Below, in pieces: positions 6,838-29,142 of a stretch of DNA of 64,000 nt. The stretch is taken from NCBI GenBank assembly GCA_023228325.1, contig JALOBK010000001.1:1667744-1731743 (forward strand), read 5' to 3'. How positions within the stretch are numbered: the first letter of the stretch is position 1; the number at the start of each line of letters is the position of its first letter. Both the position numbers and the translations under genes were made by a program. The notes under the pieces are model-generated. The model searched no databases, was not told the origin of the DNA, and worked only from the letters and a program-made list of their open reading frames with translations. This DNA is from a bacterium. GTDB lineage: Bacteria; Auribacterota; UBA6266.

Positions 6838-6855
6838 AATGAGGAGTATTTAAAA

Positions 6856-7842: not shown

Positions 7843-7862
7843 TTTCAAAAAGGTGTTTTTCT

Positions 7863-8585
7863 ATGGGAGAAGATTACAAGGTCCGGCTCGAGGTTTTTGA
7901 AGGCCCTCTTGATTTACTGCTTTACCTGATAAAGAAGGATGAGGTGGATATTTATGATATTCCGGTAGAGAAAATAACAAGACAATATCTGGAATATCTT
8001 GGATTGATGAAAATGCTTGATTTAACCATTGCCGGCGAATTTCTTGTGATGGCATCCACTCTTATGTATATAAAGTCTATGATGCTGCTTCCTCCGGAAG
8101 AAAGGGTTATAGATGAAGAAGAAGATTCCGTTGACCCCAGGGCAGATCTTGTTAAACAGCTGCTTGAGTATAAGCAGTTTAAGGAATTAGCGGATCATCT
8201 TGAGGAAAGAGAAAAGGAAAGAGTAAATATTTTTTCCAGAGCGGCTTCTGTTTCCGTCGAATCTGAAGGAGTAGAACTGTCAAATGTAAGTATATTTGAC
8301 CTTATCAGCGCGTTTTCTGATATTCTGAAGGGAGCCGGACAGGAGGATCTGCGTGAAATTTTTGAAGATAAATTTACCGTTTCAGACAAAATATCCCATA
8401 TAACCGGGGTTTTGAAAAATAATAAGAACGTTAAGTTTTCCGAGCTGTTTGAGAAGACGGCCAATAAAGGCGAGATTGTAGTTACTTTTCTGGCTGTTTT
8501 GGAGCTCATAAGATTAAAAGCCGTCAAAGCCGTTCAGAAAAAACATTTCAGTGATATTTTTATAGAAATGGTGCCAGCTGCTTAA
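7863..8585 (+). CDS. scpA: segregation and condensation protein A
   Basis: The N-terminus FEGPLDLLLYLIKKDEVDIYDIPVEKITRQYLEYL is canonical for ScpA, and it is followed by scpB. Confidence 0.9.
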   Translation: MGEDYKVRLEVFEGPLDLLLYLIKKDEVDIYDIPVEKITRQYLEYLGLMKMLDLTIAGEFLVMASTLMYIKSMMLLPPEERVIDEEEDSVDPRADLVKQLLEYKQFKELADHLEEREKERVNIFSRAASVSVESEGVELSNVSIFDLISAFSDILKGAGQEDLREIFEDKFTVSDKISHITGVLKNNKNVKFSELFEKTANKGEIVVTFLAVLELIRLKAVKAVQKKHFSDIFIEMVPAA

Positions 8586-8604
8586 AAAGCGGAGAAGGGA
8601 CGAT

Positions 8605-9159
8605 ATGGAGCAGGTAAACACAAAAGAAAATCTTAAGAATATAGTGGAGGCTGTTTTGTTCGCTTCCGCGGAACCATTGACGATTAGCGACATATTAAAA
8701 GCCTTTGAAAGCGAAGATAATCTGGGGAAAAAGGAAGTGAAAGAAGTGATAGACGCCATCAACGATGAATACAGGAATTCAGGCAAACCTTTCCTGTTTG
8801 AAGAAGTGGCAGGCGGTTTCAGGATGATTACAAGGCCTGAATACGCGGAGTATATAAAAAGGATATACCAGGCCCAGCCGTCCAGGTTGTCAAAGCCTGC
8901 CCTTGAAACGCTGGCCATTATCGCTTACAGGCAGCCGATTATCAAAGCCGATATAGAATCCATAAGAGGGGTTAATGTGGACGGCGTCATAAAAAGCCTT
9001 CTTGATAAGAATCTTATCAGGATATCGGGCAGAAAAGATGTTGTGGGACGCCCATTTGAATTTTCTACAACCGAGAAATTCCTTGAATACTTTGGCCTTA
9101 CTAATATCAAAGAGTTGCCCAGGATAGAAGAGTTGAAGCAGTTTTCTTCTTTAAAATAA
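8605..9159 (+). CDS. scpB: segregation and condensation protein B
   Basis: Winged-helix pairs with the motifs IVEAVLFASAEPLT and LETLAIIAYRQPI. Confidence 0.9.
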   Translation: MEQVNTKENLKNIVEAVLFASAEPLTISDILKAFESEDNLGKKEVKEVIDAINDEYRNSGKPFLFEEVAGGFRMITRPEYAEYIKRIYQAQPSRLSKPALETLAIIAYRQPIIKADIESIRGVNVDGVIKSLLDKNLIRISGRKDVVGRPFEFSTTEKFLEYFGLTNIKELPRIEELKQFSSLK

Positions 9160-9167
9160 CGGAGGGT

Positions 9168-10235
9168 GTGATGAAGGAATTAAAAAATCTAAGGCAGAGG
9201 ATTAATTCCGTTGATAAAAAAATAATTCAGCTGCTGAATGAGCGCGCCGGAGTTGTGCATGAAGTCGCTAAAATAAAAAAACAACATAAAGTGGAATATT
9301 ATTCGGCTTCGAGAGAAGAAGAGGTCTACAGCAATATTTCCAGGATTAACAAAGGCCTTCTTGACAAAAATTCGCTTAAAAATATCTACAGGGAGATAAT
9401 GTCCGCTTCTCTCGCGCTGGAAAAAGATATAACTGTCACTTTTTTAGGGCCTGAGGCTTCATTCACACAGATGGCTGCTTCCAAAAAGTTCGGTTCTTCC
9501 GTAAAATACCTGCCTGCGGTTTCCATTTCGGATGTTTTCAGCCTTGTTGAAAAAGGAAGCGCCGATTACGGTGTCGTGCCGATAGAGAACTCGATAGAAG
9601 GGGGAGTGACGCATACGCTGGATATGTTTATTGATTCGGACCTTAAAATATGCGCTGAAATTTATCTGGAGATAACGCATTATCTTATAGGCAATTGCGC
9701 TTTGGGTTCAATAAAGAAAATATACTCCAAGCCGGAAGTATTCGGACAATGCAGGTTATGGCTTGAAGCCAACCTTCCGGGTTTGGAATATATTCCCTCG
9801 TCCAGCACTACGGCCGCCGCCATAAGGGCCGCGAAAGAAAAACACGCCGCGGCTATTGCCAGCAGCCTTGCCGCGGAAAAATATAATATGAAAATTCTGG
9901 CAGGTTCCATTCAGGATACGGCGCATAACGAGACCAGGTTTTTGATTGTTGGAAGAAATTACAGCAAAAAAAGCAAAAAAAACAAGACTTCGGTCCTTCT
10001 TATGATAAAAGATAAAGTCGGGGCTCTTTATGAATTACTGCAGCCGTTTAAGAAGATGAAAATAAATCTTACAAAAATCGAGTCAAGGCCTTCAAGGAAA
10101 AGGGCGTGGGAATATTATTTCTTCGTTGATTTTGACGGATATGTGGAAGATGAAAAAATTAAAAAATGTGTCAGGGATATTTCCAGACACTGCAAATATG
10201 TCAAGATATTGGGATCTTATCCCAGAGTATTTTAA
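9168..10235 (+). CDS. pheA: bifunctional chorismate mutase / prephenate dehydratase (P-protein)
   Basis: An N-terminal AroQ chorismate mutase helix (LRQRINSVDKKIIQLLNERAGV), a PDT domain (TRFLIVG...ESRPS) and a C-terminal ACT domain. Confidence 0.85.
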   Translation: MMKELKNLRQRINSVDKKIIQLLNERAGVVHEVAKIKKQHKVEYYSASREEEVYSNISRINKGLLDKNSLKNIYREIMSASLALEKDITVTFLGPEASFTQMAASKKFGSSVKYLPAVSISDVFSLVEKGSADYGVVPIENSIEGGVTHTLDMFIDSDLKICAEIYLEITHYLIGNCALGSIKKIYSKPEVFGQCRLWLEANLPGLEYIPSSSTTAAAIRAAKEKHAAAIASSLAAEKYNMKILAGSIQDTAHNETRFLIVGRNYSKKSKKNKTSVLLMIKDKVGALYELLQPFKKMKINLTKIESRPSRKRAWEYYFFVDFDGYVEDEKIKKCVRDISRHCKYVKILGSYPRVF

Positions 10236-10253
10236 ATTTAAAATAAATGTTTT

Positions 10254-11360
10254 ATGATACCTCTGCCCAAAAAACATATTATTTCGCTGAATCCCTACTC
10301 ACCCGGCAAGCCGATTGAGGAGGTTAAACGTGAATTGGGTTTAAAAAAAGTAATTAAAATGGCTTCCAATGAAAACCCGCTGGGGCCCTCGCCTTTTGCT
10401 TTAAAGGCCGCTTACCGCGCTTTGAAAAAAGTCCACCTGTATCCTGAGTCCGGTTCATATTACCTGTGCCAGAAGCTTTCCGCCGCTCTTAATGTAAAAT
10501 CAGAGAACATCTGCATGGGCAACGGGTCTAACGAATTGATTCTTCTTGCCATACATTCGTATGCGTCATCTCCGGAAGACAATATAGCATATGGTTTCCC
10601 TTCTTTTATTATTTACCGGATTATAGCGCATAGTTACGGTATTAAAACGATAGAAACAGGATTGAAAAATCACAGGATAGATCTGGAAAAACTGGCGGAT
10701 TCTTTGACAGAGCATACAAAAATCGTTTTCCTGTGTAATCCCAATAATCCTATGGGAACAATGAACCGCAGGGATGAGGTTGAAGCGTTTATAGAAAAGG
10801 TGTCGTCAAAAGTTCTTATTGTAATGGATGAAGCCTATTATGAGTATGCCGATAAAAAGACTTTTCCCGACCTGGTAAAAACCTCCACGGAGAGAAAAAA
10901 TCTCATTATATTAAGGACATTTTCAAAAATGTATGGCCTGGCGGGGCTCAGAGTGGGTTACGCGGTCGGGCATAAGTCAGTAATCGAGACATTGAATAAA
11001 GCAAGGCAGCCCTTTAATGTCAATTCTGTTGCCCAATCTGCCGCTTTGGCCGCGTTAGACGACCGCGGGCATGTAGAAAGGACACTGGAGATTAATGAGG
11101 AAGGAATCGATTATATAGTTTCGAATCTGCGCGAAATGGGACTGGAATTTGTTCCGACTTCCACTAATTTCATTCTGATTAAAACAGGCGACTCAAAAAA
11201 GTTTTTTGATATGCTGCTTGAAAAGGGTATTATTGTTAGGCCGATGGGAGCTTACGGATTGAATGAATATATCAGGGTTACCGTGGGGTTGCCCGCGGAA
11301 AACAGGGAGTTCATCAAAAATTTGAAAATTGCTATGAGCCAAACCGGAGGAAATAAATGA
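10254..11360 (+). CDS. hisC: histidinol-phosphate / aromatic amino acid aminotransferase (class II PLP aminotransferase)
   Basis: PLP lysine motif RTFSKMYGLAGLRVGY. It is embedded in the aromatic amino acid operon, so it may act as the Phe/Tyr aminotransferase. Confidence 0.8.
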   Translation: MIPLPKKHIISLNPYSPGKPIEEVKRELGLKKVIKMASNENPLGPSPFALKAAYRALKKVHLYPESGSYYLCQKLSAALNVKSENICMGNGSNELILLAIHSYASSPEDNIAYGFPSFIIYRIIAHSYGIKTIETGLKNHRIDLEKLADSLTEHTKIVFLCNPNNPMGTMNRRDEVEAFIEKVSSKVLIVMDEAYYEYADKKTFPDLVKTSTERKNLIILRTFSKMYGLAGLRVGYAVGHKSVIETLNKARQPFNVNSVAQSAALAALDDRGHVERTLEINEEGIDYIVSNLREMGLEFVPTSTNFILIKTGDSKKFFDMLLEKGIIVRPMGAYGLNEYIRVTVGLPAENREFIKNLKIAMSQTGGNK

Positions 11361-12370
11361 TTATTGTTTTAAAACCCGGAATCACAAAAGAACAGAAAGA
11401 CCATATTATATCAAAAATAAAAGAGTTAAAACTTACTCCGATGGTTTCCGAGGGGGAGGAAAGGACTATTATCGGCGTAATCGGCGATGAGGATGTTATC
11501 AGAAACACTCCTCTCGAGGCTTTTTCGGGCGTTGAAAAAGTTATGCCGATTTTAAAGCCGTATAAACTGGTAAGCAAGGAATTCAAACCCGATAGGACCG
11601 TAATAAATGTTAACGGTGTTGAAATCGGGGGAAATCTGGAAGTGATAATGGCGGGGCCGTGCGCCATTGAAAATGAAAAGATGATAATCAATACGGCTGA
11701 GCATATAAAGAAAGCCGGCGCGCATATACTTAGAGGCGGAGCGTTCAAACCGAGAACGTCTCCTTACAGTTTTCAGGGACTCGGGGATAAAGGCCTGAAA
11801 TTTATGGCTAAAGCCGGAAAAATAGCCGGTTTGCCGATTGTTACGGAAGTTATGGACACACGCGATGTTCGGCTTGTGGAAGAATACAGTGATATCATAC
11901 AGATAGGCGCGCGTAATATGCAGAATTTTCACCTTTTAAAGGAGGTGGGCCTTTGCAAAAAACCCGTTCTTCTTAAAAGAGGTTTGAGTTCTACAATAAA
12001 GGAATTCCTGATGTCCGCGGAATATATTCTTGCCGGCGGGAATAAGGATGTCATGCTGTGTGAGCGCGGCATAAGGACATTTGAAGATATGACAAGGAAT
12101 ACGCTTGACTTGAGCGCCGTTCCGTTGATTAAGGAATTGAGCCATCTGCCGGTGATAGTTGACCCGAGTCACGCTACCGGAAAGAGAAGCCTTGTTCTTC
12201 CGATGAGTAAAGCCGCTATCGCGGCGGGAGCGGACGGGCTTATGATAGAAGTGCACCCCGACCCTGAAAGGGCTGTATCGGACGGGGCTCAGTCGCTTAA
12301 CTTTGCAGATTTCGGCAAATTGGTTGAAGACATAAAACCGTTTGTAAAAGCCGCAGGAAGAAAATTATAA
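11357..12370 (+). CDS. 3-deoxy-7-phosphoheptulonate (DAHP) synthase, type I-beta with N-terminal ferredoxin-like regulatory domain
   Basis: A core resembling the KDO8P/DAHP synthase I-beta family (AGPCAIENE, KPRTSPYSFQGLG, LVDPSHATGKR) plus an N-terminal domain of about 80 aa, as in Thermotoga-type DAHPS. Confidence 0.85.
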   Translation: MIIVLKPGITKEQKDHIISKIKELKLTPMVSEGEERTIIGVIGDEDVIRNTPLEAFSGVEKVMPILKPYKLVSKEFKPDRTVINVNGVEIGGNLEVIMAGPCAIENEKMIINTAEHIKKAGAHILRGGAFKPRTSPYSFQGLGDKGLKFMAKAGKIAGLPIVTEVMDTRDVRLVEEYSDIIQIGARNMQNFHLLKEVGLCKKPVLLKRGLSSTIKEFLMSAEYILAGGNKDVMLCERGIRTFEDMTRNTLDLSAVPLIKELSHLPVIVDPSHATGKRSLVLPMSKAAIAAGADGLMIEVHPDPERAVSDGAQSLNFADFGKLVEDIKPFVKAAGRKL

Positions 12371-12562
12371 TTAGGTGAATATAAAATAAACGTTGAAATT
12401 CGAAATATGAAACACGAATCTCGAAACAAAAAAATTAAAATTTCAATTTCAAAAATCTAAACATTAGTTTGAATATTGGGATTTTGGTTATTAGGATTTG
12501 TTTAGAATTTCGGATTTTTGATTTTTATATTTAAAGTGTTTATAAAGGGTGGTAATTATAAA

Positions 12563-13432
12563 ATGAAGCTCAAAAAAGTTGTTATCGTAGGCCCGGGCCT
12601 TATAGGCGGCTCAATCGGGAAAACTCTGCTGACAAATAAACTTTCCGAAAAAATCGTAGCGGTTGTAAGAAGAGAGAGCGCCGTGGATGAAGTTGTTAAA
12701 GCGGGCGCCGCCACCTCTGCCACACTGGATCTTGACCTGGCCCTAACAGGGGCGGAAGCTGTTGTTTTGTGCACTCCCGTGGGCGCGATAGCGGATAAAG
12801 CCGAATCCATAGCAAACCTTATTTCAAAAGAATGTCTTGTAACCGATGTGGGCAGCACGAAAAAAAGCATAGTCCTGAAACTCGAGAAGATTTTTGAGAA
12901 TAAAGCGCTTTTTATCGGATCTCATCCTATTGCGGGCACGGAAAAACGGGGTGTTTCTGCGGCTACTGACAGGCTTTTCCATAACGCGGTGTGTGTTCTT
13001 ACGCCGACCGATAAAACGCCTCACGCCGCTGTTGCCAGGGCTCATTCTTTTTGGAAGATGCTCGGAGCCAGGTGCATTGAAATGTCTCCTGAAAAACATG
13101 ATAAAATTTTAGCCAAAATAAGCCATCTTCCCCATCTCGCGGCATATGCGCTTGTCCGCGCTATAGCCGCAAATGCCGATATCGATATGGATGCAAAATT
13201 GGTCGGCGGCGGATTTTTAGACGCGACAAGAATAGCTTCATCACCTGCGGATTTATGGGTTGACATATTTATGGATAATAAAAAAGAAATCCTCTTTTCA
13301 GCGAAAGAATTTGTGAAAGAAATAAACAGGATTATCGATGCTTTGGAAAAAGAAGATAAGGGTACACTTCAGAAACTCTTGGAAGAGTCGAAAACAAAAC
13401 GGGATAAAATCGTCGAACATTTAAAGAAATGA
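12563..13432 (+). CDS. tyrA: prephenate dehydrogenase
   Basis: Rossmann motif VIVGPGLIGGSIG and a TyrA-type dimerisation domain. I take the start as ATG 12563, preceded by a GGTGG RBS, rather than the track start at 12518. Confidence 0.8.
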   Translation: MKLKKVVIVGPGLIGGSIGKTLLTNKLSEKIVAVVRRESAVDEVVKAGAATSATLDLDLALTGAEAVVLCTPVGAIADKAESIANLISKECLVTDVGSTKKSIVLKLEKIFENKALFIGSHPIAGTEKRGVSAATDRLFHNAVCVLTPTDKTPHAAVARAHSFWKMLGARCIEMSPEKHDKILAKISHLPHLAAYALVRAIAANADIDMDAKLVGGGFLDATRIASSPADLWVDIFMDNKKEILFSAKEFVKEINRIIDALEKEDKGTLQKLLEESKTKRDKIVEHLKK

Positions 13433-14730
13433 GCAATCTTCATATCACCCCTGTTTCTAAAGTCGCCGGTGAAGTGGACTTACCGGGTGATAAATCTATT
13501 TCCCACAGGGCTGTGATACTTGCCTCTATAGCGGAAGGGAATTCTGAGATCAGGGGTTTTCTGAGAAGTGACGATTGCCTGAATACTGTATCGGTTTTTC
13601 GTAATCTCGGGGTTGACATAGAAGATGACGGCAAGCTTATAAAAATAAAAGGCGCGGGGAAAAAAGGATTAAAAACCCCCGGCAAAGATTTATATTTCGG
13701 AAATTCCGGAACGGGAATAAGGCTTACGGCCGGAGCAGTTGCCGGATATCCTATAAATGCCGTGCTTACGGGCGATGAATCTCTTTCCGCAAGGCCGATG
13801 TCCAGGATAATTACGCCGCTTTCTATGATGGGGTGTAACGTATCCGGTGCGCCGGGAAAAAATAAAAATGATGTTACGGCGCCTCTCAAAATAAAGGGCG
13901 GAATGCTTGAAGGGATCTTCTATGATATGCCTGTTTCGAGCGCGCAGGTTAAATCCTGCATATTGATTGCCGGTTTGAACGCCGATGGCACAACCATAGT
14001 AAATTCGCTTTTGCCCTGCAGGGACCATACCGAAAAACTGCTTGAGTTTATGGGCGGCAAGATTCTTGTAACGGAGAAATCGGTGGCTGTTAATCCGGAA
14101 GCGAAACTGCATGGCGTAAGCATAATTGTGCCGGGTGATTTTTCGAGCGCGGCGTTTTTAATCGCGGCGGCTCTGGTAACAAAAAAATCCGAGCTGCTGA
14201 TAAAAAATGTCGGGTTAAACCCTACAAGAACCGGTTTTTTGAAAATCATCCAGAAAATGGGAGCGAAGGTAGAGATTAGTTATGATAATACAGGGTGTTA
14301 CAGCGAACAGGCCGGCGATATTTTTGTCAGGAGTTCTTCTCTGAGAGCGGTTGAGGTTTCGGGAAAAATAATCCCCAATAGCATCGATGAAATCCCTGTT
14401 ATTGCGCTTCTCGCGACATTTGCGGAAGGCACAACTGTAATCAGGAACGCCGGGGAATTAAGGCATAAAGAATCCGACAGGATCTCTAATATTGTAAGTA
14501 ATTTAAAATCCGCCGGAGCGGATATTCAAGAAACAGACGACGGAATGATTATAAACGGCCCTTCTGAATTCAAAGCGGGTGTTTTTGACAGCAAGGGAGA
14601 CCACCGGATAGCGATGGCTATGGCGATAGGCGCGTTAACAGCGGATAAGGACTCTTCGATTGAAGGGTCTGAGTTTATCAATACGTCATTCCCCGGTTTT
14701 GAAAAAATACTGAAGAAAATTGCCAGGTAA
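13429..14730 (+). CDS. aroA: 3-phosphoshikimate 1-carboxyvinyltransferase (EPSP synthase)
   Basis: LPGDKSISHRAVILASIAEG and NSGTGIRL motifs. It overlaps tyrA by 4 nt. Confidence 0.9.
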   Translation: MSNLHITPVSKVAGEVDLPGDKSISHRAVILASIAEGNSEIRGFLRSDDCLNTVSVFRNLGVDIEDDGKLIKIKGAGKKGLKTPGKDLYFGNSGTGIRLTAGAVAGYPINAVLTGDESLSARPMSRIITPLSMMGCNVSGAPGKNKNDVTAPLKIKGGMLEGIFYDMPVSSAQVKSCILIAGLNADGTTIVNSLLPCRDHTEKLLEFMGGKILVTEKSVAVNPEAKLHGVSIIVPGDFSSAAFLIAAALVTKKSELLIKNVGLNPTRTGFLKIIQKMGAKVEISYDNTGCYSEQAGDIFVRSSSLRAVEVSGKIIPNSIDEIPVIALLATFAEGTTVIRNAGELRHKESDRISNIVSNLKSAGADIQETDDGMIINGPSEFKAGVFDSKGDHRIAMAMAIGALTADKDSSIEGSEFINTSFPGFEKILKKIAR

Positions 14731-14873
14731 CTTCTTGTGTTTTGAATTTGTTTTATATTTTATGCTTTGAATTTTGTGTTTGTTTAGTATTTAGAATTTA
14801 GGACTTAGGATTTACTTCGTATTTCGAGTTTCGTGCTTAGAATTTTGAATTTTATCTATTGAGGGGATCATAA

Positions 14874-15557
14874 ATGCCCGACAGGAAGAACCCCATTATT
14901 GCCATAGACGGACCCGCAGGCTCGGGAAAAAGCACTATCTCAAAACTTTTAGCCGAGAAACTGAATTATTCTTATATAAATACCGGCGCAATGTACAGGG
15001 CAGTCGCGCTCAAGGTTATGTCTTCAGGCTTCCCGCTTGAAGACACTGCTTCGATAACTAAAACCGCGCGGGAAATAAAAATAGAGTTTAAAAACATCGA
15101 CGGCAAGACAAAAATCTTTATTGACGGAGCTGAATCTAACCGGCTTGTTTTCAAGCCGGGAGTGGATAAGGTAGCTTCAACAGTGTCAAAAATTCCGGAT
15201 GTCAGAAAGGCAATGGTCGCGCTGCAGCGTAAAATGGGCGAAAAAGGCGGTGTTGTGCTTGAAGGAAGGGATATCGGGACGGTGGTATTTCCGGATGCCG
15301 AATTTAAGTTTTATCTCGATGCCGGTATCGAAGAAAGGGCGAAGAGGCGATATAACCAGTTAAAAGAGAAGGGCGAGGAAAGGAATTTGGATACTCTTGC
15401 GCGGGAAATTGAAAAAAGAGACAATCAGGATTCGACCAGAAAGACCAGCCCGCTGAGAAAAGCCGAGGATGCCGTTTATGTTGATACAACCGGCATGACG
15501 ATAGGTCAGGTAATAGACAGGATATCATCGCATATAAGGGGAAAAACAGGGAAATGA
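14874..15557 (+). CDS. cmk: cytidylate kinase
   Basis: P-loop IAIDGPAGSGKST and a conserved Cmk core. It lies upstream of rpsA, the same aroA-cmk-rpsA order seen in E. coli. Confidence 0.9.
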   Translation: MPDRKNPIIAIDGPAGSGKSTISKLLAEKLNYSYINTGAMYRAVALKVMSSGFPLEDTASITKTAREIKIEFKNIDGKTKIFIDGAESNRLVFKPGVDKVASTVSKIPDVRKAMVALQRKMGEKGGVVLEGRDIGTVVFPDAEFKFYLDAGIEERAKRRYNQLKEKGEERNLDTLAREIEKRDNQDSTRKTSPLRKAEDAVYVDTTGMTIGQVIDRISSHIRGKTGK

Positions 15558-16165
15558 CGTATTTGATAAGCAGGTTTATTATAAAAGTTTTCGCTAAATT
15601 GTTCTGGTCTTTTAAAACATATAACATGGACCGGGTACCGGCAAAAGGAGCTGTTATTATCGCCGGCAACCATGCCAGTTATATGGACCCACCGCTTGTA
15701 GGCTGTTGCGTGAAAAGGAAACTGTGGTTTGTGGCGCGGAAGACTCTTTTCAGAAATAAGTTTATGGGAAGGTATCTTAAAATGATACAGGCGATGCCTA
15801 TTGATAACAAAGCGGCTGATGTCGGAGCACTGAAGATGATCTTAAAAAAATTGAAAGAGGGCGAAGGTGTTGTTATATTTCCGGAAGGGACACGGTCAAC
15901 GGATGGGGAACTGCAGGATCCGAAACTCGGCATCGGCGCCATCGTCCTTAAAACAGGTGTTCCTGTCGTCCCTGCCTACATCCGGAATTCCTATAATGCC
16001 TGGCCGCGCGACTCCAAGACGCCCAAATTCGGGGTGAAAGTCAAAGTCTATTACGGCAAGCTCCTGCAATTCAACAAGATAGCAAAACCTTCCAAAGAAG
16101 AAATCAAAGAAGCCTCCGAGCGCATTATGAGGGAGGTGGAGGCTTTGAAAGAGGGGGCTGTTTAA
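15554..16165 (+). CDS. plsC: 1-acyl-sn-glycerol-3-phosphate acyltransferase
   Basis: HxxxxD acyltransferase motif (AGNHASYMDP) and FPEGTRS. Confidence 0.85.
   Translation: MTYLISRFIIKVFAKLFWSFKTYNMDRVPAKGAVIIAGNHASYMDPPLVGCCVKRKLWFVARKTLFRNKFMGRYLKMIQAMPIDNKAADVGALKMILKKLKEGEGVVIFPEGTRSTDGELQDPKLGIGAIVLKTGVPVVPAYIRNSYNAWPRDSKTPKFGVKVKVYYGKLLQFNKIAKPSKEEIKEASERIMREVEALKEGAV
16052..16159. repeat. 108-bp perfect direct repeat, copy 1 (the 3' end of plsC); copy 2 is at 19153-19260
   Basis: An identical 108-nt string (TACGGCAAGCTCCTGCAATTCAACAAGATAGC...GAAAGAGGGGGCT) occurs at both positions. Similarity extends a further 5 nt upstream with one mismatch. Confidence 0.95.
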
Positions 16166-16205
16166 AAGCATCAGACTAATTAGATGATTTTTAAAGGAGG
16201 TTTTT

Positions 16206-16805
16206 ATGAAGTTCAGAACCACCGTGATTGTCTTAATCGTGATATTGATACTTTGTGTTTTGGGTTTAATTATCAACTATAACGGTTTTGTGAAATCGGA
16301 AAAGGAAGTTGAAGAAGCAAAAGCGCAGATAGAGGTTGCTTATCAAAGAAAAATAGACCTTATTCCTAATCTGGTCGAAGTTGTGAAGGGCTATGCAAAA
16401 CACGAGAGAGAAACGTTTGTCGCCGTTTCAGAAGCCCGAAGCAGCGCAAAAGAAGCATTGGACAGTGTCGCCGGTAAAAAAGATTTTACCAAGGAAGACC
16501 TAAAAATGCTGAATGATTCCCAGTCAAAGCTCAATGTCTCTTTAATGCCTTTGTTTGCTGTAGTCGAAAGATACCCTGATTTAAAATCACAGGCGAGTTT
16601 CCTGTCTTTGCAGGATCAGCTTGAGGGCACGGAAAACAGGATTGCGGTTGCCAGGAACAGATACAACCATGATGTTAAAATCTACAACATAAAGATATCT
16701 GCGTTTCCCGGAAACATTCTGGCTTGCCTGTTTGGTTTTAGCAAGAAAGACAGTTTTGAATCCTCTGCGGCGACGACCGGTGAAACCGTGAAGGTGGAAT
16801 TTTGA
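16206..16805 (+). CDS. lemA: LemA family protein
   Basis: An N-terminal TM helix followed by the LemA core (EVAYQRKIDLIPNLVEVVKGYAKHE...VVERYPDLK). It is typically paired with a TPM-domain protein. Confidence 0.8.
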   Translation: MKFRTTVIVLIVILILCVLGLIINYNGFVKSEKEVEEAKAQIEVAYQRKIDLIPNLVEVVKGYAKHERETFVAVSEARSSAKEALDSVAGKKDFTKEDLKMLNDSQSKLNVSLMPLFAVVERYPDLKSQASFLSLQDQLEGTENRIAVARNRYNHDVKIYNIKISAFPGNILACLFGFSKKDSFESSAATTGETVKVEF

Positions 16806-19117
16806 TAAAGGTAATAAGAAATTTATGCGCGGCGTTATGTGTTTTTATAATCCTGGGGTTTTTATCAGGCGGCTGCGGCCATAAAGATGAAAAATTTGAC
16901 CTTTCTAAAATAATAAAATCCCGCCCGAAAAAAAACTTTTCTGTTTATGATTACGCCAAAATACTCAGTTTTCCCGATGAGTATCTCATGAAACGAACTG
17001 GGAGTTTTAAAAAAGAATACAATATGGAAGTTGTGGTTGTGATAATACCTTCTTTGGACGGAAAAGATGTGGTAGAGGTATCTTCCGATCTGTTTTCAAA
17101 TTGGAACATTGGTAAAGACAACAATGGCAGAGGCATTTTGTTTCTTGTATCACAGGATGAGAATCTTGTTAAAGTTGAAGTAGGGTATGCGCTGGAAAAT
17201 ACGCTGACTGATTTTTTCTGCGGCTATATAGAACGCAATACAATGGCTCCTTTTTTCGAAAACAACCAGATAGACGAGGGATTCAGTTATTCCCTTTGGA
17301 GAATTGAAGATAGGATAGAGGGAAAATTGACTGACGGGAAAATAGAAAATCTCAAAAAAGCGGGTGATGAATATTTATCCGGCGGAGGAGGGGTGAAAGC
17401 AAAAAGTCCCATAGGAAAATTTCCTGTTTATCAGGAACTGCCGGATGTTGAAAAGGAATATTATTCCGCCCAGCCGACACCTGAACTTCTGTGGGAAAGG
17501 TACCTTGAGGCCATTAAAAATAATGTGACAGACCCTTCTTTGGGGATTTACGCTGAAAGCAAAAATGCCATGTTGAAACGTTATCAGGAATTCTCGACGG
17601 GATATAACTGGGATTGTTATCAGAAATATTCGTCTTGTCCATATGAAATAAAAGAGAAGGGCGATTATGCCGTTCTTATCAGCGACCCCAGAGTTTTCTT
17701 TATGAAGAAAAACGAAAAGGGGTGGCAGATAGATTTCGTGAACATGAGAAAATGGTCGCGGGGAACTGAAGGCTGGATTATATGCGGAAGCAAGCATCCG
17801 TACATATTTCCTTTTAAGGAGGAAAAATATGCGTCCAGACTCAAAGATGGGCGGTATTTTTACGAGTATTCCAATGTTTCGGGTGTCTCCGATAATTTTG
17901 AAGAGTATCTGACTAAATATGAACGTTTACTTGAGGAAGACCCGGATAATGTCGACTATATGATAAAATTGGCGGAAGGTTATATGGACCTTACTTTGCC
18001 ACACCTAGCGGTTCCTCTCTTTAAAAAAGCCATTCTGATTGAACCGGATAATCCTCTGCCCTATAAATATCTGGGGCTTATGTACAGAGATTTGCTGCAC
18101 TGTTACAAAGAGGCAGAGAAGTTCATTGACAAATATATAAAATTGCGTCCTTATGATCCCAAAGGGTATGAGTATGCGGGTAATTTATATATCAGGTTGG
18201 AAAGGACTAAAGAGAACTGTGAGAAAGCCGCAAAATACTGGCTTGGATATGCCGAATGTTCTGAAAACAATAAGAATTATGGCTACAACAATGCTGGATA
18301 TTTTTATTTTAAATGTCAAAATTATGATAAAGCTGAGGAATGTTTTTATAAGGCGTTGAAACTTAATCCCAGGGATAAATATCCGATAGAGTGGCTTAAG
18401 AAAATGCACTCTCCTATCCCTGCATTGCCTCAGGAAGAAAGTTCTCATACGGAAGTGGTTTTCGAGCAAAAACCTGTCAGCGGAGCCAAAGCATGGGCAT
18501 TAGCAGCTTCAGCTGTTTTGACGGAGGTGAATGGGCGTAGTCATGTTTTACTAGGCACCAGGAAAGCAACAGAAAAAAACATTGAAAAACAGCGAAAAGC
18601 TATAGATGAATGGTGGGACATAAAGACTAAAAAAGATTTGATAGGATCATTAAGATGGATTAAAGAAGGAGGTCACCGCAAAGGTTTTGAAAAAATGGGG
18701 GCATATATCTCGTCATTAAATTTTGCCCAGTATAACCAGCTTCTGGCACAAGAGGGAACTAACCCTGAGAGTAAGAATAAAATAAATATTGTTTCCAAAT
18801 ATTATAAGAAGCTTGGAGATAAGAGCCTGTTGGGGTGGGACTATTCCAGGTATATATCGCTTTGCAGATGGGGATACCTGACGGGGTTGTTATCTGAAGA
18901 AGAAACATGGCAGTTGATTATGCCTGTGGTCCGTATGCTTCAGAAAAGATTTGATTCGTGGAAAGACCTTGGGGAGAATTACCTGATTGGGAGGCAATAC
19001 TGGTCCTACAGCCAGACTCAAAAAAATGGGGATGAGTACGAAGAAGCATATCAAAAGCTGCTTAATGACCCCCGAAGCCCATGGAATACCCTGCCGTGGG
19101 ATATGAACCTGAATTAG
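16802..19117 (+). CDS. lipoprotein with N-terminal TPM (YgcG-like) domain, TPR repeats and a C-terminal DUF1266-like domain
   Basis: TTG start overlapping the lemA stop, and a lipobox LSGGC. The TPM fold spans about residues 40-200. TPR-like repeats follow (YEYAGNLYIRL, AGYFYFKCQNYDKAEECFYKALKLNPRD). The C-terminal GWDYSRYISLCRWGYLTGLLSEEETW resembles the DUF1266 (E. coli YbeR/YbeU) signature. Confidence 0.65.
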   Translation: MIKVIRNLCAALCVFIILGFLSGGCGHKDEKFDLSKIIKSRPKKNFSVYDYAKILSFPDEYLMKRTGSFKKEYNMEVVVVIIPSLDGKDVVEVSSDLFSNWNIGKDNNGRGILFLVSQDENLVKVEVGYALENTLTDFFCGYIERNTMAPFFENNQIDEGFSYSLWRIEDRIEGKLTDGKIENLKKAGDEYLSGGGGVKAKSPIGKFPVYQELPDVEKEYYSAQPTPELLWERYLEAIKNNVTDPSLGIYAESKNAMLKRYQEFSTGYNWDCYQKYSSCPYEIKEKGDYAVLISDPRVFFMKKNEKGWQIDFVNMRKWSRGTEGWIICGSKHPYIFPFKEEKYASRLKDGRYFYEYSNVSGVSDNFEEYLTKYERLLEEDPDNVDYMIKLAEGYMDLTLPHLAVPLFKKAILIEPDNPLPYKYLGLMYRDLLHCYKEAEKFIDKYIKLRPYDPKGYEYAGNLYIRLERTKENCEKAAKYWLGYAECSENNKNYGYNNAGYFYFKCQNYDKAEECFYKALKLNPRDKYPIEWLKKMHSPIPALPQEESSHTEVVFEQKPVSGAKAWALAASAVLTEVNGRSHVLLGTRKATEKNIEKQRKAIDEWWDIKTKKDLIGSLRWIKEGGHRKGFEKMGAYISSLNFAQYNQLLAQEGTNPESKNKINIVSKYYKKLGDKSLLGWDYSRYISLCRWGYLTGLLSEEETWQLIMPVVRMLQKRFDSWKDLGENYLIGRQYWSYSQTQKNGDEYEEAYQKLLNDPRSPWNTLPWDMNLN

Positions 19118-19148
19118 CGCAAGATAACAAAGATATTGTTGCATTTAT

Positions 19149-19266
19149 CTACTACGGCAAGCTCCTGCAATTCAACAAGATAGCAAAACCTTCCAAAGAA
19201 GAAATCAAAGAAGCCTCCGAGCGCATTATGAGGGAGGTGGAGGCTTTGAAAGAGGGGGCTTCCTGA
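19149..19266 (+). pseudogene. duplicated 3' fragment of plsC (encodes the last 36 aa, YYGKLLQFNKIAKPSKEEIKEASERIMREVEALKEGA)
   Basis: Copy 2 of the 108-bp direct repeat. The track ORF 19081..19266 reads through it in frame. There is no N-terminal acyltransferase domain. Confidence 0.85.
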
Positions 19267-19349
19267 AAGGCCTCTTTATTTGTTGCAAGGAATATGGATG
19301 TATGTTAGAATGATTTATCTGTTATAAATAATTCCATCCGGGGGTCTTG

Positions 19350-19670
19350 ATGGAGCCGTCTTTTGGCATTCGTTTATTGAACCTTTTTAAAGAAAGCGTA
19401 GAGCTGTCTTCAACCGAGATAGCCGCAGTCCTTGACATCAATCTTTCATCAGTTGAAAAGGGCCTGTTCGATTTTATGCAGAACGGATGGGTCCAGGCGA
19501 GAGTTTCCGGCGAGACATTATTTTATTCTCTGGTGAAAGAGCGCCTTCGGGAGATAAATTATTTTATTAATATGTACAGCCGCTCAAGGATGGAGAAAGA
19601 TATTTCCCGCCTGGAAAACATACTTAAAGCCAGATTCTCAACCGAGGAACCGGCCAACTTTTCAAGTTAG
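19350..19670 (+). CDS. small winged-helix DNA-binding protein (putative transcriptional regulator)
   Basis: LSSTEIAAVLDINLSSVEKGLFDFMQNGWV resembles a wHTH recognition-helix region. Confidence 0.4.
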   Translation: MEPSFGIRLLNLFKESVELSSTEIAAVLDINLSSVEKGLFDFMQNGWVQARVSGETLFYSLVKERLREINYFINMYSRSRMEKDISRLENILKARFSTEEPANFSS

Positions 19671-19820
19671 TTTCGCATTCGTTTATATAATTCTTTCCGA
19701 GATGTGGCGTTAGCGTTATTTCTCTTGACAATTCTTGCGGCTATTTAATATCATACACACTCACTTTTTATCTGATTCATTTTAGATAGAAAGAATATAT
19801 TAAAAGGAGGAAATAGCAAG

Positions 19821-21542
19821 GTGATAGCAAAAGAACTGAAAACCAAACAAACACTCGAAGAGCTTGATGAGTCAAGCGAAAATTCTGCTGGAAAGGAGGG
19901 CATGCTTTCCGATGACGAGCTCAGCAAGTTATATGAGCAGAGCTTCAAAGTTCTCGAAGAAGGGAAAATAGTTGACGGAACCATTATCAGCAAGGATGAA
20001 AAAGGCGTGATTGTTGATGTTGGTTATAAATCAGAAGGTTTTGTTGCCAAAGAGGAATTCCGCGATTACGACAAAGTCAAAGTCGGCGATAAAATAAATG
20101 TGATGATAGAAGAAAAAGAAAACGAGGACGGTATAATAGTACTTTCGAAACTGAAAGCCGACCGGTCGCTTAACTGGGAAAAAACAATTTCTTCCTGCGA
20201 AGAAGGAAAAGTCCTTAAAGGAAGGATATTCAGGAAGGTCAAAGGCGGGCTTATGGTTGATATCGGGATGGAAGCGTTCCTGCCGGCTTCCCAGATAGAC
20301 GTTAAACACATTTTCAATATGGATGATTATATCGGCAAAGAGTATGATTTTAAAATAATCAAGATTAATCCCCAGAGAAAGAACATAGTCGTTTCAAGGA
20401 GAGAACTGCTTGAAGAAGAACGGCAGAGAAGTAAATCGAAACTCATCCAAAACGTGGAAGAAGGACAGATCAGGAAAGGGTTTGTAAAAAATATCACTGA
20501 TTTCGGCGCGTTTATTGACCTTGGCGGAATAGACGGACTTCTTCATATTACCGATATGACGTGGGGAAGAATATCTCATCCGTCCGAACTGCTTGCTGTC
20601 GGCGACCACGTTGAAGTGATGATACTTGAATTTGACAGGGAAAAAGAAAGGATTTCCCTGGGGTTGAAACAGAAAACGGCTAACCCATGGGAAGACATTG
20701 AAGAAAAATACCCGGTCGGCTCGAAAATCAAGGGTAAAGTGGTAAGTATTATGCCTTACGGCGCTTTTGTAGAGGTGGAAAAAGGCATAGAAGGCTTAAT
20801 CCATATTTCAGAGTTGTCCTGGACGAAAAGGATTAACCATCCGTCCGAGATGCTTGCTGTCGGGGACAGTGTTGAAGCGATGGTCCTTAATCTCGACAAA
20901 TCCAACCAGAAAATTTCGCTTGGATTAAAACAAACTGAACATAATCCCTGGGAAAAAATAGAGGAAAAATATCCTGCAGGCACCAAGATACGCGGGAAAG
21001 TCAGGAATCTTACCAACTACGGGGCTTTTGTTGAGTTGGAGGATGGTATTGACGGATTAATACATATATCCGATATGTCATGGACAAGAAAGATCAACAC
21101 CCCTTCGGAAATCCTTAAGAAAGGTGATCTGGTAGAGGCTCAGATAATTTCCATAGACAAGGATAATAAAAAGATTGCGCTGGGAATGAAGCAGTTACAG
21201 CCCGATCCGTGGGACCAGGTCAAGGATTCTTTTAAAATAGGCGATGTAGTTAAGGGAAAAGTTAACAAGATAACGAAGTTCGGAGCTTTCGTGGAAATCG
21301 GCGAAGGAGTGGAAGGGCTTATCCATATTTCTCAATTGTCGGATAAACCCGTTGAGAAGGTAACTGATATATTGAAAGAGGGTCAGGAAGTTGAAGCAAT
21401 GGTCATTAAAGTGGAAAAAGAAGAGAGGAAGATAGCTTTAAGCCTTAAGGATGCATCGGGACCGGAAACAGGCAAGTCAGAGGATGAAGAAACAGCGGAA
21501 GAAAACTCCGGTGAGCATGATGAAGAACCGGAATCGAAATAA
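19821..21542 (+). CDS. rpsA: 30S ribosomal protein S1
   Basis: Six tandem S1 domains (repeated GxVxxIxxFGAFVxL and GLLHISE/DMSW motifs) and an acidic C-terminal tail. GTG start with an AAGGAGG RBS at 19805. Confidence 0.9.
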
Positions 21543-21555
21543 ATCTTAATAAAAA

Positions 21556-21583
21556 GGGACTTGGTCAAACAAGTCCCTTTTTT
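21556..21583 (+). terminator. rho-independent terminator after rpsA
   Basis: GGGACTTG-GTCAAA-CAAGTCCC hairpin followed by TTTTTT. Confidence 0.8.
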
Positions 21584-21606
21584 CGCGCCTTTTTCAGGAG
21601 ATAGTC

Positions 21607-22827
21607 GTGAATATTACGGAACAGTTAAAAATCTTATGCGGCGGGGTTGAAGAAATAATACCCGAAGCGGAATTCAAAAACAAACTTGAAAAGTCCGCTT
21701 CCACAGGTAAACCGCTGAGGATAAAATGCGGAATTGACCCCACGAAACCCGATGTGCATATCGGACACCTTGTCCCTTACAGAAAGATGAGGCAGTTTCA
21801 GGATTTAGGGCATACAGGTGTTGTGATAATAGGTGATTACACCGCTTCGATCGGGGATCCTACCGGAAAATCCGAAGAGAGACCTCATCTTACACCGGAA
21901 GAAGCTAAAAGAAACGCTGAAAAATATCTCGAACAGTTATATAAAATTCTGGATCCGGAAAAAACAAAAGTTCATTTTAACGGCGAATGGTTTTCAAAAT
22001 TTTCCTTTAAAGATGTACTGGGCCTTGCGAGTAAAGTTACATTTGCGCAGATAATGGCCCATGAAACTTTCAGGACGAGATATGAAAAGGGAGAGCCGCT
22101 CTCTATGCATGAACTTATGTATCCCCTTCTCCAGGGATATGATTCCGTTGAAATAAACGCGGATGTTGAATTAGGCGCTACTGAACAGAAATTCAATATT
22201 CTTATGGGTCGGGAATTACAGAGAGCTTTCGGAAAAGAACCTCAGGTCGCGATGCTGTTTCCTATTCTTACAGGCATAGACGGAATAAATAAAATGTCAA
22301 AATCCTTGGGTAATTACATCGGTTTGAATGACAAGCCGGATGATATTTTCGGCAAAGTCATGAGCATACCCGACAGCGCAATCATAAATTTTGTTGTTTA
22401 CGGAACATCCACAGGACAGGATTTTGCCGATAAAGCAAAAAACCATCTTAAATCCGGTAAAAATCCGAGAGATTTGAAACTTGAACTTGCGGAAATAATC
22501 GTGAAAGAACTATCTTCCGGGGATGATGCCGTTAAAGCGCGTGAAAATTTTCTTAATACTTTCAGCAGGAAAACAGGCCCGGCGGAAGAGCTTATTCAGA
22601 CAATCAGCATAAAACCGGGAAAATACTGGGCAGTGAAACTGCTCGTCGATAACGGCTGCGCTAAAAGCAACGGAGAAGCCCGGAGACTAATTGAGCAAGG
22701 CGGGTTTGCAATCGGAGATGTAAAGATAGACGATGTTGATTTGGAAGTGAATGTGCCGGAAGACACAGACGGTAAATTGCTGAAAATAGGGAAAAAGAAA
22801 TTCGCGCGCATTGTTGCCAAAAAATAA
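21607..22827 (+). CDS. tyrS: tyrosine--tRNA ligase
   Basis: HIGH motif (PDVHIGHLVP), KMSKS, and a C-terminal S4 domain (ARRLIEQGGFAIGDVKIDD). GTG start. Confidence 0.85.
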   Translation: MNITEQLKILCGGVEEIIPEAEFKNKLEKSASTGKPLRIKCGIDPTKPDVHIGHLVPYRKMRQFQDLGHTGVVIIGDYTASIGDPTGKSEERPHLTPEEAKRNAEKYLEQLYKILDPEKTKVHFNGEWFSKFSFKDVLGLASKVTFAQIMAHETFRTRYEKGEPLSMHELMYPLLQGYDSVEINADVELGATEQKFNILMGRELQRAFGKEPQVAMLFPILTGIDGINKMSKSLGNYIGLNDKPDDIFGKVMSIPDSAIINFVVYGTSTGQDFADKAKNHLKSGKNPRDLKLELAEIIVKELSSGDDAVKARENFLNTFSRKTGPAEELIQTISIKPGKYWAVKLLVDNGCAKSNGEARRLIEQGGFAIGDVKIDDVDLEVNVPEDTDGKLLKIGKKKFARIVAKK

Positions 22828-22850
22828 TTTATATTTTTTGTAGAAAAAAG

Positions 22851-22879
22851 TTGACATAGCTTTTCAGTTTTAATATTAT
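22851..22879 (+). promoter_or_regulatory. rRNA operon promoter P1 (sigma70-like)
   Basis: TTGACA (22851-56), a 17-nt spacer, then TATTAT (22874-79), with an AT-rich UP-like region upstream. Confidence 0.55.
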
Positions 22880-22954
22880 GGTCGCCGTGCTCTTTATAAT
22901 GTAAATAGAAAAATAGCGGTTTTTATCGTGTAAAATAAATATTTGTAAAAGGTA

Positions 22955-22982
22955 TTGACAAATAGAGATTTCAGAGTATATT
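22955..22982 (+). promoter_or_regulatory. rRNA operon promoter P2 (sigma70-like)
   Basis: TTGACA (22955-60), a 16-nt spacer, then TATATT. Confidence 0.5.
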
Positions 22983-23175
22983 TGTTAAAGGCAAGAGCAA
23001 GCTAATATCTTTTATTAAAATTTTGTTATTTGATAAAGTGACAGCTTTCAGGTTGTCACTTTTTTCTGCGGTTTTTCTGCTCTTTGAAATTTGAATAGTA
23101 TGATGTGAATTGTGCAAGGTGCTTCTGTTTATTTAAGAAATACCTGATACTTTTAAGTGTCAGGTTCAAGCTTTT

Positions 23176-24738
<1,563 letters not shown>

Positions 24739-25295: not shown

Positions 25296-26024
25296 GTGAA
25301 CCGTCGCTCCGAAAGAAGGTTCAGGTTAAGGTTGAGGGAAATAGGTTTTAATATTAAGTTAAGATTGAGAATGAATCTCGGTTTTAACTTAATATTAAAA
25401 GCTGAAAAAACAGAGCTTTTATTTGTTCTTTGACAACTGAATATCAGTAACAATAGAGAACTGCTGCAACAATTGAGCAATATAGGATTCTTTAAGGTCA
25501 AGCTATTAAGGGTATGCAGTGGATGCCTTGGCATCGTTAGGCGATGAAGGACGTGGTAAGCTGCGAAAAGCTTCGGGGAGGCGCAAACTGCCGTTAATCC
25601 GGAGATGTCCGAATGGGGAAACCTATTTCAGGTAATACTGAAATACCTTGTGCTGAATACATAGGCACAAGGAGCGAAACTGGGAAAACTGAAACATCTA
25701 AGTAACCCAAGGAAAAGAAAACGATAGTGATTTCCTGAGTAGTGGCGAGCGAAACGGAAAAAATTTGCCTAAACCTGATAAGTGTCAAGCCGGCAGGCGT
25801 TGCTTATCGGGTGTCGCGGGATCCAATGATTTCAATCTGCCGATTGGAAGAGAAGTTACAAATCTGTTTTTTAGCGGAATAGTCTGGAAAGTCTTCCCAT
25901 AGAAGGTGAAAGGCCTGTACGCGAAAAGAAGCAGACTTCTTATTTGGATTCCCGAGTACTGTCAGACACGTGGAACCTGGCAGGAATTTGCCCCGACCAC
26001 GGGGTAAGGCTAAATACTAAACGA

Positions 26025-26071
<47 letters not shown>

Positions 26072-27421
26072 TGTTAGGGGAGTGAAATAGTACCTGAAAC
26101 TGTATACTTACAAACCGTCGGAGGCCTATGCTTCGGTTATCCGAAGAACGGCTGACGGCGTGCCTTTTGCATAATGATCCGGCGAGTTTATTCTATGCGG
26201 CAAGGTTAATCCTTTAAGGGAGAAGCCGTAGCGAAAGCGAGTGCTAAACGCGCGATTAGTCGCATGGATAAGACCCGAAGCCAAGTGATCTATCCATGGC
26301 CAGGTTGAAGCCTCGGTAACTCGAGGTGGAGGACCGAACTAGTGAGTGTTGAAAAACTCTTGGATGAGCTGTGGATAGGGGTGAAAGGCTAATCAAACTT
26401 GGAGATAGCTGGTTCTCCCCGAAATATATTGAGGTATAGCCTCGTGTAATAGTTACTGGGGGTAGAGCACTGGATGGGCTAGGGGTCTTACCGGACTTCC
26501 AAAACCAACCAACCTCCGAATACCAGTAACCGTATCACGGGAGGCAGACTGCGGGTGATAAGGTCCGTGGTCGAGAGGGAAAGAGCCCAGATCGCAGGTT
26601 AAGGTCCCTAAATTTACGCTAAGTGAGAAAGGAAGTGAAATCTCTAGAACAGCTGGGATGTTGGCTTAGAGGCAGCCATCATTTAAAAAGTGCGTAACAG
26701 CTTACCAGTCGAGAGGTTTTGCGCCGAAAATAATCGGGGCTAAGCGTAATACCGAAGCCGCGGATTTATCCCGCCCTCGGGCGGGGTAAGTGGTAGGGGA
26801 GCGTTCTATACGGATTGAAGGCATACCGGAAGGAGTGCTGGACTGTATAGAAGTGATTATGCCGGAATGAGTAGCGATAAGGTGTGTGAGAATCACACCC
26901 GCCGTAAACCCAAGGTTTCCTGGGGAAGGTTCGTCCGCCCAGGGTTAGTCAGGACCTAAGGCGAGGCCGAAAGGCGTAGTCGATGGACAACAGGTTAATA
27001 TTCCTGTACTGTCTTGGTGAGTGATGGAGTGACGCAGTAGGCTAAGTGGGCCTTGTGCTGGATATCAAGGTCTAAGCGAGTAGGGGGATTGATAGGCAAA
27101 TCCGTCAATCATTACCCTGAGAAGCGACGGGACACGGAGTCTTCGGACGAAGTGGATTCACTGACGCCACACTGACAAGAAAAACTTCTAAACTTATTGC
27201 CAGGATACCTGTACCGTAAACCGACTCAGGTGGGTGAGGAGAGAATCCTAAGGCGTGCGAGAGAACTCTCGTTAAGGAACTCGGCAAATTAACCCCGTAA
27301 CTTAGGGAAAAGGGGTGCCTTAACCCGTGATGTAATTAACTTGCAAAAGCGGGATAAGGTCGCAGTGAAATGGCCCAGGCGACTGTTTATCAAAAACACA
27401 CGACTCTGCTAAAGCGCAAGC

Positions 27422-27454
<33 letters not shown>

Positions 27455-27515
27455 AAAGGTTAAGGGAAAGAGTTATGTCCGACTTGTCGGACAGAAGCTT
27501 AGAACCGAAGCCCCA

Positions 27516-27572
<57 letters not shown>

Positions 27573-28108
27573 ATTCCGACCTGCACGAATGGTGTAACGA
27601 TCTGGGCACTGTCTCAACGAGGGACTCGGCGAAATTGTAGTGGCGGTGAAGATGCCGCTTGCCCGCGGCTAGACGGGAAGACCCCGTGAACCTTTACTGT
27701 ACCCTGATATTGGATTTTGGTATGACTTGTGTAGCATAGGTGGGAGGCTTTGAAGTCCCGGCGTCAGCCGGGATGGAGCCGTCAGTGAAATACCACTCTG
27801 GTTATGTTGAAATTCTAACTGTATGCCGTGAATCCGGCTGCAGGACATTGTCAGGCGGGCAGTTTGACTGGGGCGGTTTCCTCCCGAAGCGTAACGGAGG
27901 AGCACGAAGGTTACCTCAGCACGGTTGGCAATCGTGCGACGAGTGTAAAGGCATAAGGTAGCTTAACTGCGAGACAGACAAGTCGAGCAGATACGAAAGT
28001 AGGTCTTAGTGATCCGGCGGTAGAATGTGGAATTGCCGTCGCTCATCGGACAAAAGGTACTCCGGGGATAACAGGCTTATCGCTCCCGATAGTTCATATA
28101 GACGGAGC

Positions 28109-28167
<59 letters not shown>

Positions 28168-28224
28168 TAGTTGTTCACTAATTAAAGCGGTACGTGAGCT
28201 GGGTTCAGAACGTCGTGAGACAGT

Positions 28225-29111: not shown

Positions 29112-29142
<31 letters not shown>

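Follow-up and report, generated by a model that had tools for sequence, protein, structure and literature searches.

The stretch of DNA analyzed here comprises 64,000 nucleotides (nt) from the genome of an uncultured bacterium (hereafter the window), and is part of a 1,989,506-bp NCBI contig. In the window, a segment that carries lemA and a gene encoding a protein with TPM, TPR and DUF1266 domains (the TPM gene) separates plsC from its native downstream neighbors, orf107 and rpsA. Two identical 108-nt copies of sequence from the 3' end of plsC bracket this segment. The lemA-TPM segment is a true insertion. It forms a small genomic islet, bordered by a gene end that has been duplicated and situated in a transfer hot spot, a kind of structure that is already known. 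It is very probable that the insertion is real, recent and located at a hot spot. The explanation favored for the locus as a whole, a recent horizontal gain in which the repeat arose from an illegitimate join at the hot spot, has about an even chance of being correct. The illegitimate join, taken as a mechanism by itself, is a tentative choice that falls somewhat short of an even chance.

The two copies of the repeat, both on the forward strand, occupy positions 16052-16159 (copy A, within the functional plsC) and 19153-19260 (copy B, after which the ancestral downstream sequence follows), with a spacing of 3,101 nt. The pair is the sole exact repeat of at least 25 nt, direct or inverted, across the window, and the only imperfect long repeats are this pair and the internal S1-domain repeat of rpsA. 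The first-pass annotation of this DNA had described the repeat as the last 108 nt of plsC reappearing identically. The identity is indeed exact over 108 nt, but copy A stops 6 nt short of the end of plsC (15554-16165, stop codon at 16163-16165). Copy A runs on as GTT TAA and copy B as TCC TGA. An apparent extension of the repeat to 122 nt at 96% identity is at chance level (right side, P = 0.44; left side, P = 0.10; anchored extension compared with random 25-mers of the window), and no residual similarity was found beyond the 108 nt, either upstream or downstream. The boundaries of the repeat are therefore sharp. An older, diverged duplication containing a conversion tract was considered and dropped, as neither the extension nor the common position of the stop codon is significant.

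Relatives of the organism show the site without the insertion. In the metagenome-assembled genome (MAG) STD1_172 (locus L004; PlsC 90% identical), plsC is followed by a homolog of orf107 and then rpsA, with nothing between. The same order, plsC, orf107 homolog, rpsA, is found empty on an unbroken k = 31 contig from Logan run SRR13394437 (L015; PlsC 94% identical). The distant Candidatus Aureabacteria (L020; PlsC 60% identical) is also empty and has the order aroF-tyrA-aroA-cmk-plsC-orf115-rpsA-tyrS. The absence of lemA-TPM from this site in all three relatives bears out the earlier suggestion that the segment is inserted into a cmk-plsC-rpsA arrangement. No similarity to the inserted DNA was found in the loci of the relatives. 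In three relatives, the sequence after plsC corresponds to that found after copy B in the window. The flank at 19261-19346 is 93% identical to STD1_172 and 98% identical to MAG UBA6266 (DJVC01000115.1; L005/L018), for which 47 nt are available, compared to ~85% in the flanking coding sequence. The plsC genes of STD1_172 and UBA6266 end in TCC TGA, as does copy B. The PlsC proteins of the relatives end in GAS or GAR, and that of the window ends in GAV; its length is unchanged, the last residue has changed from Ser to Val, and the GTT TAA comes from the inserted DNA. In silico removal of 16160-19260 recreates the plsC end and the downstream arrangement of the relatives. The old end of plsC persists as a displaced remnant within a 61-aa open reading frame (ORF) at 19081-19266 on the forward strand. 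Its last 38 codons match the former PlsC C-terminus, including Ser-TGA, in agreement with its initial description as a C-terminal PlsC fragment. The ORF has no Pfam match and is presumed to be non-functional.

The UBA6266 contig was also considered as an empty site. It is identical to a second filled locus, described below, through the end of the repeat, and ends after a further 28 nt of ancestral flank. It was downgraded, as the assembler could have collapsed a repeat here, or the same strain could have an empty allele. Scanning metagenomes with the PlsC alignment yielded a single, distant locus, and exact look-ups of the window PlsC and orf106 returned no additional strains.

The genes on either side of the insertion belong to a conserved core block, aroF-tyrA-aroA-cmk-plsC-orf-rpsA-tyrS, the order of which is kept in L002, L004, L017 and L020. 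All of the window genes named here lie on the forward strand. Upstream are cmk (14874-15557), encoding cytidylate kinase (Pfam PF02224, 7.5e-76), and the intact plsC, which encodes a protein of the 1-acyl-sn-glycerol-3-phosphate acyltransferase family (MCK9555755.1; PF01553, 1.2e-28). Downstream are orf107 (19347-19670), encoding a small protein with weak helix-turn-helix matches, and rpsA (19821-21542), encoding ribosomal protein S1 with six S1 domains (PF00575, 1.8e-105). orf107 is the native neighbor of plsC in all relatives; its orthologs directly follow plsC in the three empty loci and follow the insertion in the second filled locus (L017).

Both junctions between the inserted segment and the chromosome are real. 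Logan contigs from run SRR18595300, assembled at k = 31, are identical to the window over 4874-16081, 16130-19182 and 19231-23202, and all three break 30 nt (k-1) inside the repeat. Breaks at this distance indicate a genuine repeat node with two paths in and two paths out, and both novel junction sequences are present in the reads. The cargo is a single unbranched Logan unitig (L001). Because it is unbranched through both cargo ends, the sample contains no second identical copy of the cargo. A 640-nt MEGAHIT contig from ENA (ERZ27247358 k141_84629; L016) equals positions 15685-16324 of the window; it runs from unique plsC sequence through all of copy A into lemA. The k-mers of this contig exceed the repeat, so the left side of the integrated form is physically linked. 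The Logan and ENA runs may be the same data as those behind the source genome.

An assembly artefact, a concern raised in the first-pass annotation, would mean that the 3.1-kb segment was threaded wrongly through the common 108 nt and that the true chromosome is empty. The k = 31 graph cannot by itself order the four unitigs, and the UBA6266 contig ends just after the repeat, so repeats of this kind do break or mislead assemblers. However, k141_84629 links plsC, the full copy A and lemA using 141-mers, L001 holds both novel junction sequences, and the source is a contig of 1,989,506 bp. An artefact is extremely improbable.

The inserted cargo (16160-19152, forward strand) is 2,993 nt in length and consists of a 46-nt leader, lemA, the TPM gene and a 35-nt tail. 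The leader carries a ribosome-binding site, AAAGGAGG. The cargo contains exactly the two genes originally reported, and both are supported by Pfam. lemA (16206-16805) encodes a member of a single-pass membrane protein family (PF04011, 7.3e-52). The TPM gene (16802-19117), whose start overlaps the stop of lemA (TTGA), encodes a predicted lipoprotein of 771 aa with matches to PF04536 (1.2e-25), TPR families and PF06889 (2.3e-42). In a search of 5.8 billion proteins, the TPM protein matched one identical protein and then homologs of at most 42% identity. The top homologs, at 42%, lack DUF1266, and the combination of TPM and DUF1266 was found in only one further match, at 28% identity. The nearest homologs of LemA are at most 62% identical and are spread over several phyla. 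Since neither cargo protein has a close homolog, the sampled relatives do not harbor the module elsewhere in their genomes. Distant homologs of the TPM protein also adjoin lemA in unrelated contexts (loci L007-L013). The cargo is thus an ordinary lemA-TPM pair, like those of unrelated genomes in having a TPM-domain gene directly after lemA, and differs from them by a rare and unusual C-terminal DUF1266 fusion.

The cargo has no features of a recognized mobile element. Its two genes fill it, and it encodes no transposase, integrase, or replication, mobilization or other recombination function. No integrase, transposase or other mobility gene was found among the window ORFs scanned with Pfam or those annotated in L002. 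Terminal inverted repeats were not found at the cargo ends (1718 of 2000 shuffles scored at least as well). An integron cassette was rejected: there are no attC or core sites, no inverted repeat was found, only 35 nt follow the TPM stop codon, and the left end, GTTTAAA, is unlike GTTRRRY. A phage or viral origin was also rejected, as IMG/VR contains neither a relative of the TPM protein nor a copy of the repeat core. The PADLOC defense models gave no match for the TPM protein and only a marginal ZorA match for LemA (E = 0.0015), and the cargo was therefore rejected as a known anti-phage defense system.

The repeat itself indicates the source and relative age of the duplication. Copies A and B differ at 0 of 108 positions. 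The same block differs from that of L015 at 10 positions, from that of L004 at 22 and from that of L005 at 24; between lineages, identity in the flanking genes is 83-85%. The event is therefore young relative to the split from the nearest sampled relative, a reading that the first-pass annotation had offered for the absence of divergence, alongside gene conversion. The repeat carries synonymous variants particular to the lineage of the window, indicating that it is duplicated resident sequence, or that it has been fully homogenized. Recombination between the copies would be expected to delete the cassette precisely and restore the ancestral site. The earlier view of the repeat as a substrate for precise deletion agrees with the in silico removal described above.

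A second insertion occupies the same site in a sister lineage. A 94-kb ENA contig (ERZ27315056 k141_305879; L017) encodes a PlsC identical to that of MAG UBA6266, and shares 94.6% nucleotide identity with the empty locus of STD1_172 over cmk and plsC. Between plsC and orf107 it contains an unrelated cargo, which is bracketed by a repeat of the plsC 3' end (5514-5625 and 9485-9596; 112 nt with 2 mismatches) with a spacing of 3,971 nt. This cargo includes two 220-aa Y1_Tnp (IS200/RAYT-like) genes, a gene for a 374-aa secreted protein, a Phd/ParE toxin-antitoxin pair, four hairpins resembling repetitive extragenic palindromic (REP) sequences (AAAAGGGGTCAACTCCCTTTT), a 230-nt internal duplication and one weak CarboxypepD_reg match. 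The REP hairpin is absent from the window. At both mismatches copy 1 keeps the base common to the relatives, so the displaced copy has drifted, as duplicated host sequence would. In L017 coordinates the window repeat corresponds to 5499-5606; the two repeats overlap by 93 nt, and their boundaries are shifted by 15 and 19 nt. No common motif was found at the ends of the window and L017 cargos. A third, degenerate copy of the repeat within the L017 cargo, which would have been a sign of accretion, is not significant.

Insertions have recurred between plsC and orf107 in this lineage, making the interval a hot spot. A filled site and at least one empty lineage occur on each side of the tree, and the distant outgroup is empty, so two independent gains are the most parsimonious history. 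The different accessory content of the same interval in relatives makes it a hot spot in the sense of PMC5635113. As in core-gene hot spots of that kind, the plsC-orf107/rpsA interval varies in accessory genes, is empty in some relatives, and has at least one occupant without recognizable mobile-element genes (PMC5635113). Turnover at those hot spots is usually ascribed to homologous recombination in the core genes on either side, without duplication, whereas here a duplication of ~110 nt brackets each occupant.

Alternatively, one old insertion may have been present in the common ancestor of the window and L017 lineages, its repeats being homogenized by gene conversion, its cargo exchanged, and L004 and L015 having lost it. 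The interleaving of filled and empty sites on the tree, the 93-nt overlap of the two repeats and the host-like codon usage of the cargo would all fit such a history. However, it needs at least two losses, a full cargo swap and trimming of both repeat boundaries, as opposed to two simple gains. The two cargos have nothing in common and the distant L020 is empty. Moreover, conversion would have to hold identity over 108 nt across ~15% divergence while the same repeats drive deletion. A single old insertion is very improbable.

A terminator-like hairpin followed by a T-run (19252-19287, forward strand), identified by a consensus scan and by folds of the window and its relatives, overlaps both the end of copy B and the stop codon of the ancestral plsC. 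The right repeat boundary cuts this hairpin in its apical part. As a result, copy A contains the 5' arm of the hairpin and is missing the 3' arm and the T-run. A promoter-like site, TTGCAA-17-TAGAAT with a TG element (19283-19311, forward strand), lies ahead of orf107 in a highly conserved intergenic region. A ribosome-binding site precedes lemA-TPM, but neither a convincing promoter nor a convincing terminator was seen within the cassette. Given that copy A lacks the 3' arm, transcription from cmk-plsC should read through into lemA-TPM. It seems likely from these predicted signals that the cassette is transcribed by read-through from cmk-plsC, with termination downstream of copy B at the old terminator. 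An internal promoter, which would oblige the duplication to be long, was sought in the repeat and rejected, as none was seen by consensus scan or by eye. A conserved RNA structure or 3'-derived small RNA over the repeat was likewise rejected: RNAalifold over the repeat in four lineages gave a covariation term of zero, and single-sequence fold z-scores are weak.

In the favored explanation, a 2,993-nt lemA-TPM cassette lacking promoter and terminator would have entered the 3' end of plsC and its terminator in one event, and the 108-nt duplication of resident plsC sequence would have arisen in that same event. The join could have been a staggered break with fill-in. Alternatively, ~110 nt may have been copied a second time through a replication template switch that trapped foreign DNA at the junction. 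The repeat would then not be an attachment site carried in by a mobile element. Copy A would complete plsC, and copy B with the old flank would keep the plsC terminator and the control region of orf107/rpsA. The insertion may have survived because plsC and the terminator/promoter region of the essential downstream genes stay intact.

The first-pass annotation had instead proposed a Campbell-type insertion, in which a circle carrying lemA-TPM and a copy of the plsC 3' end integrates by a single crossover. Such a circle would measure ~3.1 kb, with one 108-nt plsC segment, and would recombine with the chromosomal plsC 3' end in a RecA-dependent manner. The observed structure is exactly the product of a single crossover. 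As in Campbell insertion-duplication, two direct copies of one resident segment bracket the DNA, the empty site holds one copy, the target is intact, and the arrangement is reversible by recombination. RecA-dependent plasmid integration in Bacillus subtilis is reported to require ~70 bp of homology. The repeats of 108 and 112 nt just exceed this requirement, which would explain their similar lengths. The k = 31 repeat node is compatible with a circle together with an empty site, but the k141 contig shows the integrated form. In contrast to Campbell insertion-duplication, there is here no evident circular donor, vector function or independent source of homology. No circular junction contig, donor or viral-contig match was found, and the two-gene cargo includes no replicon, mobilization or recombination gene. 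The circle must already hold the lineage's own plsC segment (0 of 108 differences, against 10-24 of 108 in relatives). The only possible sources of such a circle are an insertion that already existed or the aberrant excision of an earlier one. The Campbell model thus presupposes an insertion and additional steps, and would explain spread or re-integration rather than origin. Campbell-type integration is a possible but unlikely account of the locus.

Site-specific integration would place an attB site in the plsC 3' end, with the two copies as attL and attR and the cargo as either a cis-mobilizable element (CIME), a decayed remnant that lacks an integrase, or an element integrated by an integrase acting in trans. 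Such elements characteristically insert into conserved genes at the 3' end and restore that end. The repeats are of suitable length, as the SLP1 and pSAM2 sites of Streptomyces coelicolor have repeats of 112 bp and 114 bp (PMC1934918), and CIMEs keep their flanking att sites but no longer have genes for integration and transfer (PMC5704250). The window resembles them in having no integrase inside the repeats and in the reuse of the site by different cargos, with repeats that overlap extensively. However, neither cargo encodes a tyrosine or serine recombinase, and the screen of the window and L002 described above returned no integrase. L017 has only its Y1_Tnp genes with REP hairpins. Y1_Tnp (IS200/RAYT-like) enzymes are not known to make long repeats. 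Unlike known att elements, the site here is a protein-coding 3' end, and neither an intact relative of the element nor an integrase was found. Within each host, the repeat pair matches the resident plsC, including synonymous sites, rather than a common element-borne att arm; the window block and the L005/L017 block differ at 24 of 108 positions. The cargo ends share no motif and the repeat boundaries differ between the two events by 15-19 nt. There is no pseudogene debris in the window cargo, a clean two-gene cassette, and yet its repeats are undiverged. Site-specific integration is quite unlikely.

Transposition also duplicates target sequence around an insert, and the similar length of the duplication in the two events is a further likeness. 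However, the duplications here are 108-112 nt, and the window cargo has no transposase and no terminal inverted repeats. Target-site duplications of known bacterial elements are ~2-15 nt.

Several observations weigh against the favored explanation. The right junction (TPM gene, repeat, orf107) is spanned in the source contig alone. In composition and codon usage the cargo cannot be told apart from host genes, which is odd for DNA from a distant donor. The terminator-like hairpin has weak folding z-scores and, like the promoter-like site at 19283-19311, is a consensus match only. No donor was found. No enzyme or process is known that routinely makes target duplications of ~110 nt. Under a non-specific mechanism, lengths of 108 and 112 nt in two independent events are an unexplained coincidence. 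Some integrase-mediated elements, among them SLP1 and pSAM2, typically have direct repeats of ~110 bp (PMC1934918). Chance, an enzyme that acts as a ruler, a filter for minimum homology or the usual distance of a template switch could possibly account for the similar lengths. There is a slim chance that an unrecognized process makes target duplications of ~110 bp, acting repeatedly on the 3' end of plsC close to the terminator, and perhaps on other genes in the same way. The agent could be an enzyme, of the host or acting in trans, whose cuts in the two strands lie some ten helical turns apart; template switching of a stereotyped kind at the hairpins of terminators could have the same effect. 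If true, it would constitute a new class of long-duplication gene capture.

The window contains other features of note. The intergenic region between aroA and cmk (14735-14852), upstream of the insertion, contains several short, imperfect, T-rich direct repeats with units such as GTTTAGTATTTAGAATTTAGGACTT. The 23S rRNA gene (25496-29250) is interrupted by a group I intron at 28255-28900, which accounts for the gap of 1.1 kb that seems to separate the 23S and 5S genes. The Rfam model Intron_gpI scores 44 bits over 28636-28893, short of its gathering score of 50, and an ORF in the intron (28357-28848) encodes a 163-aa LAGLIDADG homing endonuclease (PF00961, 1e-26). A thiamine pyrophosphate (TPP) riboswitch (34118-34223; Rfam RF00059, 56.5 bits) lies upstream of a gene for a Thi4-family thiazole synthase (34366-35148). 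A 473-aa ORF (58181-59602) without a Pfam match has a GC content of 31.5%, and 23% at third codon positions, compared to ~42-45% in its neighbors. It is located just upstream of tRNA-Lys (59825-59900) and may be horizontally acquired.

The lemA-TPM islet provides a clean, datable case in which an uncultured bacterium related to UBP3/Aureabacteria gained a small envelope-protein operon. The practical value of the locus is limited; it marks a site that varies between strains and a repeat at which short-k assemblies break. For the organism, the gain sits in a deeply conserved housekeeping block, the neighboring essential genes are undamaged, and the built-in repeat allows the operon to be lost again.

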